Origin: Escherichia coli
GTDB taxonomy: Bacteria; Pseudomonadota; Gammaproteobacteria; Enterobacterales; Enterobacteriaceae
Assembly: GCF_002854065.1 (NCBI RefSeq)
Contig: NZ_CP024147.1
Length of the DNA stretch: 64,000 nt
Direction: 5' to 3' (one strand)
The notes below the pieces were generated by a model. The model searched no databases. It was not told the origin of the DNA and saw nothing but the letters and a program-made list of their open reading frames with translations. A program made the translations under genes and the position numbers. Positions 35,563 to 35,781 of this stretch are shown here, one piece after another (position 1 is the first letter of the stretch; every line of letters starts with the position of its first letter).

Positions 35563-35604
35563 AAAAAGGGCCGCTTTCGCGGCCCTTGAGAGTGATGGCA
35601 AAAG

Positions 35605-35725
35605 CAAAACTGCCTGATGCGCTACGCTTATCAGGCCTACATACTTCCTGCAATATATTGAATTTGCACGATCTTGTAGGTCGGATAAGGCGTTCACGCC
35701 GCATCCGACATGAACAACGCGCACT
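35605..35725. repeat. REP palindromic repeats between SPFH gene and tktA
   Basis: ctgcctgatgcgctacgcttatcaggcctac ... gtaggtcggataaggcgttcacgccgcatccgacatg. Confidence 0.85.
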
Positions 35726-35781
35726 TTACCAATAATCTAAAGGGCCGCTTTCGCGGCCCTTCTCACAAAACGTCTTACTGA

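Follow-up and report, generated by a model that had tools for sequence, protein, structure and literature searches.

Why does one terminator hairpin occur twice downstream of tkt in this Escherichia coli genome, with repetitive DNA between the two copies? The movement of REP, BIME, and REPIN sequences has been an open question for decades, and a duplication the size of a hairpin is a clue to how such elements insert. The reading favored here, and considered probable, is that the hairpin pair is a target-site duplication that arose when a BIME-1 (RIP/RIB, approximately 151 bp) inserted into the terminator shared by tkt and the neighboring prohibitin gene.

The hairpin copies at the tkt locus

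The 18-mer GGGCCGCTTTCGCGGCCC has two exact copies in the window (the whole stretch of DNA analysed, 64 kb), at 35568-35585 and 35742-35759, and had no match in 100 dinucleotide-preserving shuffles with up to two mismatches tolerated. Both copies are embedded in a perfect 23-nt repeat, AAAGGGCCGCTTTCGCGGCCCTT (35565-35587 and 35739-35761), with a start-to-start distance of 174 nt; both carry the asymmetric TTTC loop in the same orientation, which makes the repeat direct. The initial annotation had placed a hairpin pair around REP sequences at 35570-35587 and 35745-35762; both copies exist, but these coordinates are 2-3 nt too high. The features of the locus are as follows.

34654-35562, plus strand: prohibitin (SPFH) family gene, 302 aa, an open reading frame convergent with tkt
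35565-35587, no strand assigned: hairpin copy 1, tkt-distal, AAAGGGCCGCTTTCGCGGCCCTT, terminator-like on the minus strand
35588-35611, minus strand: BIME-1 outer flank on the Y side, 24 nt, GAGAGTGATGGCAAAAGCAAAACT, matching the consensus right flank AGTTTTGCGTTTGTCATCAGTCTCA
35612-35640, minus strand: Y-type REP, minus-strand sequence GTAGGCCTGATAAGCGTAGCGCATCAGGC, read directly and aligned to the BIME-1 profile
35641-35675, minus strand: L linker, 35 nt, with a predicted IHF site in the sequence (IHF-type core TCAATATATTG at 35651-35661, minus strand)
35676-35709, minus strand: Z1-type REP, plus-strand sequence GTAGGTCGGATAAGGCGTTCACGCCGCATCCGAC, from the sequence, the inverted repeat, and the profile match
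35710-35738, minus strand: BIME-1 outer flank on the Z1 side, 29 nt, minus-strand sequence AGATTATTGGTAAAGTGCGCGTTGTTCAT, matching the consensus left flank (TC)AGATTGTTGACAAAGTGCGCTTTGTTCAT
35739-35761, no strand assigned: hairpin copy 2, tkt-proximal, the same 23-mer, not flagged as terminator-like
35782-37773, minus strand: tkt (transketolase); the open reading frame reaches 37803 from an upstream GTG, and RefSeq tkt is 1992 nt

The gene at 34654-35562 is annotated by RefSeq as a prohibitin family protein in genomes that are 95-100% identical. Its stop codon and an A-run overlap the T-tract of the tkt terminator, which is on the opposite strand. The distal hairpin (stem-loop at 35566-35587) has a 9-bp stem and a 4-nt loop, with a folding energy of about -18 kcal/mol, and is followed on the minus strand by seven Ts (35561-35567). 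The proximal hairpin lies 20 nt from the tkt stop codon (35782) and is followed on the minus strand by TTTAGATTATT, which is the end of the BIME and has no T-tract. The arrangement of an intrinsic terminator, a GC-rich stem-loop and then a T-tract, is therefore found at the distal copy only. This agrees with the initial annotation, in which the distal copy was given the better minus-strand T-run and the copy next to tkt a weak one (TTTTTTT as compared with TTTAGATTATT). The weak T-run of the tkt-proximal copy would be due to the insertion having fallen between the stem and the T-tract.

The element between the hairpins

Positions 35588-35738 form one canonical BIME-1 (RIP/RIB) of 151 bases, in which two REP palindromes surround an IHF site. 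The initial annotation described a REP cluster here; REPs do lie between the hairpins, but since two inverted REPs (Y and Z1) surround a 35-nt linker, they constitute one BIME-1/RIP and not a loose cluster. The features of the BIME-1/RIP/RIB class are all found: inverted Y and Z1, an L linker with an IHF consensus core, and both outer flanks. The tkt copy also matches, over its full length (150+ nt), an nhmmer profile made from 12 other copies, the consensus of which is TCAGATTGTTGACAAAGTGCGCTTTGTTCAT - Z1 - L - Y - AGTTTTGCGTTTGTCATCAGTCTCA. An 18-nt motif of its L linker, AATTCAATATATTGCAGG, is identical in the copies from E. albertii, E. whittamii, and K-12. The element is intergenic, between the convergent prohibitin-family gene and tkt, and is present in zero, one, or two units among 5426 genomes.

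The outer 15 nt or so of the two ends (in 35588-35611 and at 35724-35738) form an imperfect terminal inverted repeat. In the consensus, 13 of 17 positions agree between one end, TCAGATTGTTGACAAAG, and the other when reverse-complemented, TGAGACTGATGACAAAC, and the termini follow the pattern (C/G)AGAYTG...CARTCT(C/G). On the minus strand, 35545-35790 has a minimum free energy of -104 kcal/mol (z = -7) and folds into one hairpin of approximately 200 nt; the stem is this long because the palindromic hairpin copies pair with each other and lengthen the stem of the BIME.

Rfam family RF02751 (ES036/CssrF) matches 35633-35675 on the minus strand with 53.5 bits (gathering score 37.6), while nothing further on the BIME-1 was above the Rfam threshold and the REPs gave sub-threshold naRNA4 matches only. 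The ES036/CssrF "sRNA" family seems to be the linker of a repeat element.

Alleles of the tkt locus

The alleles were surveyed in 5426 complete E. coli genomes. The junction between the prohibitin gene and tkt occurs in about 1771 of these, and 1213 of the 1771 are filled with a BIME. The locus has zero, one, or two BIME units with one, two, or three hairpins, respectively. In ECONIH1, which has the empty allele, one hairpin lies in a 45-nt gap between the genes and is directly followed by the tkt-side flank; the locus is 627 bp long in this strain and 801 bp when filled. Two units and three hairpins are found in T-HYM1 and AST240. Smaller variants include SCU-108, in which the hairpin copies differ in the loop (TTTC vs. 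ATTT), and EcPF7, in which the Y REP is partly deleted.

K-12-type genomes are without the prohibitin gene and have a different, single tktA terminator, GGTCGCCGAAGCGACC. In K-12 (L003 2689-3001, compared with 33571-35782 of the window), the spacer between cmtB and tktA is an AT-rich, unrelated sequence of 313 bp, and this K-12-like state at cmtB-tktA is found in about two thirds of the complete E. coli genomes. According to the initial annotation, its interpretation would fail if genomes without the REP and the SPFH gene had both hairpin copies. This is not what is seen: a single copy is present where the SPFH gene occurs without a BIME (L001), and genomes of the K-12 type have the other terminator.

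E. whittamii has an orthologous BIME-1 insertion, with the derived flank variants GATGGCAAA and CCAA in common. Its hairpin copies now differ by compensatory changes in the stem (AGAGCCGC...GCGGCTCT as compared with GGGCCGC...GCGGCCC), which points to an old insertion with both stems kept foldable. From these sequences, the tkt insertion would predate the split of E. coli and E. whittamii, in which case the empty E. coli alleles at tkt are probably secondary precise deletions and not the original target.

Other BIME-1 copies

If the hairpin pair is a product of insertion, the same arrangement is to be looked for at other BIME-1 copies. The window has two more, and the first case given in the initial annotation, a hairpin pair downstream of fbaA at 20971-21007 and 21139-21175, is indeed present.

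20971-21007, no strand assigned: fbaA terminator hairpin, distal copy, TTGCTATTGGCGAAAAAAAGACCCGCAGAGCGGGGCT, the first case
21008-21138, plus strand: fbaA BIME-1 in Z1-L-Y orientation, with the right flank shortened or merged with the duplicated segment
21139-21175, no strand assigned: fbaA-proximal hairpin copy of the first case, 37 nt, 89% identical to the distal copy
21199-22278, minus strand: fbaA, the gene neighboring the first case
58131-58260, minus strand: third BIME-1, degenerate, 130 nt, an nhmmer match with the IHF core deleted

The 37-nt direct repeat at fbaA contains the hairpin GACCCGCAGAGCGGGCC, its copies are spaced 168 nt apart, and the BIME-1 has the opposite orientation to that of the tkt copy. 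The third BIME-1 (58131-58260) lies between open reading frames of 118 and 239 aa, with a hairpin, GGCCAGCATTTGCTGGCC, only on its Z1 side.

The fbaA locus is filled in K-12, while MMC-J-0066 and many others have an empty allele that is 168 nt shorter and has one hairpin. The K-12 BIME-1 copies at artJ-rlmC and uspB-pitA have duplicated hairpins on both sides, and both loci are polymorphic in E. coli (561 vs. 391 bp at artJ-rlmC and 561 vs. 387 bp at uspB-pitA); the empty alleles of UTI89 and NCTC9082 at these loci have exactly one hairpin each. The difference in length between filled and empty alleles corresponds to the BIME plus one hairpin in each case: 174 nt at tkt, 168 nt at fbaA, 174 nt at uspB-pitA, and 170 nt at artJ-rlmC. 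Empty alleles thus exist for all four loci compared (tkt, fbaA, artJ, and uspB), with a single hairpin in every one. The empty artJ-rlmC site has the loop CACCTG (UTI89, L154), and the K-12 copies have CAACCG and CACATG (L151), so that the empty-site loop is one or two changes from each. Such an intermediate is as expected of an ancestral target, and suggests that the empty state is ancestral at artJ-rlmC and that both K-12 copies have drifted from it.

Exact-pattern scans for the L linker gave at least 141 loci from Escherichia genomes and metagenomes. The genome scan used a strict pattern, the L motif plus GTAGG, and found 21 loci; the metagenome scan used the bare L motif and found at least 120, many of them redundant or unrelated. 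Full-length loci were taken from a profile search of 1.4 Mb of DNA and clustered on their outer flanks, and the resulting 16 loci are a sample and not a whole-genome census. At each, the 56-nt sequences lying just outside the left and right ends of the element were locally aligned with each other. An alignment score of at least 12 was reached at 11 of the 16 BIME-1 loci, compared with 1.7% of 240 mismatched pairs (binomial tail 1e-16), and a score of at least 10 at 12 of the 16, compared with 5% of the 240 mismatched left/right pairs; for this null, the two T-HYM1 units were not counted as separate loci. Among 13 independent REP loci of other types, none reached 12 in the same test, and the top score of 11 came from a degenerate BIME-1. 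The argument of the initial annotation that the same pattern at two loci suggests a mechanism and not coincidence is supported by a footprint at 11-12 of 16 BIME-1 loci and 0 of 13 other REP loci, with empty alleles at four of four loci.

The duplicated segments have a locus-specific sequence each time and are GC-rich stem-loops of about -5 to -19 kcal/mol. Their lengths by locus are 16, 18, 20, 20, 20, 22-23, 22-26, 25, 28-30, and 37 nt, each corresponding to the local stem-loop, and they adjoin the element ends within 0-3 nt. The T-tract is usually outside the duplication, on the side of the distal copy. Since the hairpins are palindromes, a reverse-complement control says nothing where the loop is symmetric; direct orientation is shown at the loci with asymmetric loops (tkt, fbaA, L012, L152, L024, L038, and L067).

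Four of the 16 full-length copies are without a duplication. Three of these have a hairpin on one side only, and the fourth, at entD-fepA, has none: this K-12 BIME-1 (L150 1501-1651, the L030 cluster) has intact ends and neither flanking hairpin nor direct repeat. Any model of insertion must allow for this exception. Elements that are missing one flank still have a hairpin on the intact side, and the right end is shortened in three copies (fbaA, L011, and L067). The orientation of the element (Z1 to Y) relative to the terminator T-tract is one way at seven loci, the other way at three, and undecidable at two, with no significant bias.

Since the hairpin is locus-specific and is single in the empty alleles, it is target DNA. 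The same evidence bears on two other accounts, both scarcely credible, in which the hairpin is part of the mobile unit or the convergent genes each have a terminator of their own. BIME-1 copies do follow transcription units at their 3' ends and often have convergent genes on either side, where two terminators might be expected. However, the hairpin sequence differs at each locus and one copy stays behind in the empty alleles, contrary to a hairpin that moves with the unit, and independent terminators would be expected to differ, while these copies are direct, identical or nearly so, and have the same asymmetric loop; mismatched flank pairs fail to align.

It is also quite improbable that a BIME-1 first came to lie beside a single hairpin, which slippage or unequal exchange later copied across to the other side. 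Unequal exchange does operate at the tkt locus, where it is seen in the alleles with two units and three hairpins, but it requires a prior repeat and gives whole extra units, not a lone hairpin at the far end. The event would also need to have happened separately at 11-12 of the 16 loci, whose hairpins are unrelated, and with identical end points each time. Where only one hairpin is present, the flank on the bare side is mostly truncated too, which suggests loss and not a precursor. As the hairpin duplication accompanies the presence of the element, a target duplication associated with insertion is the simplest account.

Which hairpin terminates transcription

Where the distal copy keeps the T-tract, the gene-proximal hairpin is left without one, and the hairpin in use may then be the one farther from the gene. 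In K-12 Term-seq data (Adams et al. 2021, PMC7815308, supplementary file 1), the artJ-sense 3' end is at 899644 and the uspB-sense 3' end at 3639154. Both correspond to the T-run after the distal copy, beyond the BIME-1, and the same K-12 list (PMC7815308) has no end at the T-less proximal copies of artJ and uspB. At fbaA, where the duplication includes the T-run, strong 3' ends are found at both copies (3070118/9 and 3069950), 168 nt apart (PMC7815308).

Given the ends at the distal copies of artJ and uspB, the tkt transcript probably passes the T-less proximal hairpin (35740-35761) and reads through the BIME-1, ending in the seven Ts near 35566, after the distal hairpin (35566-35587). The distal hairpin with its T-tract should thus be the main tkt terminator, which is a prediction by analogy with those loci, and the BIME-1 should be part of the tkt 3' UTR. 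For annotation, the hairpin nearest to the stop codon is often not the terminator in use, and the 3' UTR includes the BIME-1.

Mechanism of insertion

At the loci compared, the duplication spans a complete stem-loop, with its length set by the local hairpin and not by a fixed stagger. That the whole stem-loop is duplicated, with the A- and T-tracts usually outside, points to joining at both feet of the stem, one per strand. Integration could proceed through a nick in each strand, at the two feet of a hairpin that may be extruded as a cruciform, and gap filling would then copy the entire stem-loop. The REP-associated Y1 transposase (TnpA-REP/RAYT) is the enzyme that first comes to mind as a candidate, and IHF may bend the element. 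Once formed, the direct repeats would permit both precise loss, giving empty alleles, and tandem gain, giving two BIMEs with three hairpins. The polarity of gain is proposed from the comparison of alleles.

The broader proposal, that integration of BIME-1 and REPINs is guided by structure, with intrinsic-terminator hairpins nicked at both feet and the whole hairpin duplicated, is a serious but tentative possibility. The reproducible footprint offers testable points in the preferred target (intrinsic terminators) and in strand joining at both stem feet. It also accounts for the location of BIME-1 at the 3' ends of transcription units, for its precise coming and going among isolates, and for the retention of termination. 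If integration is guided by structure in this way, the footprint would be unlike that of any described bacterial transposon family, would be the first sequence-level footprint of the spread of REP elements, and would explain how REPs accumulate at the 3' ends of operons without destroying termination.

The TnpA-REP cleavage rule does not account for the joints in their present form: in vitro, this enzyme requires a GTAG-tagged REP and cleaves at C|T (PMC3333891), but the conserved termini are 2-3 nt past C|T and the terminators have no GTAG.

The variable length of the duplications is also compatible with template switching or microhomology-mediated repair at a stalled fork, with no dedicated transposase, which is an unlikely alternative but deserves more weight than a secondary duplication of the hairpin. 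By this route, the hairpin stalls synthesis, and the nascent strand copies a distant BIME-1 and returns upstream, so that the hairpin is copied twice. The duplicated 37-mer at fbaA includes TTGCTTTTGGCG, which resembles the BIME flank TTGCGTTTGTCA, and such a joint is more in keeping with homology-assisted joining than with a clean cut. At tkt, the stretch that follows the target hairpin resembles the BIME end (11/18 similarity), and the three copies with shortened right ends are likewise in accord with template switching. However, the element ends are constant within 0-3 nt at most loci regardless of the target, which is unexpected for microhomology joins, and most junctions have no flank homology.

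Comparison with known elements

The existence of BIME-1, its binding of IHF, its location at 3' ends, and its presence or absence among isolates are already known. The tkt element has the same sequence and architecture as the BIME-1/RIP/RIB of E. coli (Y REP, L linker with IHF site, Z1 REP, and flanking motifs), but is at a locus absent from K-12 and is flanked by a duplication of the target terminator hairpin. It is thus a typical member of a known family with an apparently undescribed insertion footprint. No flanking terminator hairpin duplication was found in the searchable REP/BIME/REPIN literature, although an older description, from the 1990s, is still possible.

Bacterial MITEs resemble the tkt element in being non-coding and approximately 150 bp long, with imperfect terminal inverted repeats, direct repeats of the target, and folding into one long stem-loop. 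MITE target duplications are short, and the stagger of the transposase gives them a fixed length. The tkt-type duplication is instead 16-37 nt and tracks the size of the local hairpin, so the element is like MITEs in its terminal inverted repeats but not in a fixed-length duplication.

The closest mechanistic analogue for duplication of a whole hairpin is that of the CRISPR repeat. In spacer integration, Cas1-Cas2 with IHF make a staggered attack at the borders of a palindromic repeat of approximately 28 bp, and gap filling duplicates the palindrome. However, the CRISPR insert is a spacer whose length of 33 bp is set by a protein ruler, while here it is a 150-bp repeat element, and no result on the BIME-1 loci analysed here suggests Cas involvement. 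Extragenic targeting directed by structure or palindromes, as proposed here, is also known for IS1397, ISKpn1, and ISPpu9-10, which target REP hairpins and make a duplication of 3-4 bp. For these insertion sequences the REP is the target, while here it is the REP-containing element that inserts, and its target is an intrinsic terminator.

REPINs, which are mobilized by RAYT/TnpA-REP, are like the tkt element in forming a long hairpin from an inverted REP doublet. They are presumed to be non-autonomous mobile units, and the mechanism of their dissemination is stated to be unresolved (PMC8266576; PMC3337134). Single-strand transposition of the Y1/HUH IS200/IS605 type, to which RAYT/TnpA-REP is related, makes no target duplication (PMC2817692), while the duplications here are long, sized by structure, and direct (16-37 nt at 11-12 of the 16 full-length copies), which argues against this mode. 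Published TnpA-REP models deal with cleavage at C|T and with BIME-2 arrays, and not with terminators as targets (PMC3333891). Polymorphism for the presence or absence of BIME-1 among isolates is already reported in a passage of PMC1187871 that cites Bachellier 1997.

The window also contains two tandem REP arrays, at 38818-39043 (113-nt units, 92% identical) and at 61397-61570 (87-nt units, 89% identical), which are probably BIME-2-type clusters.
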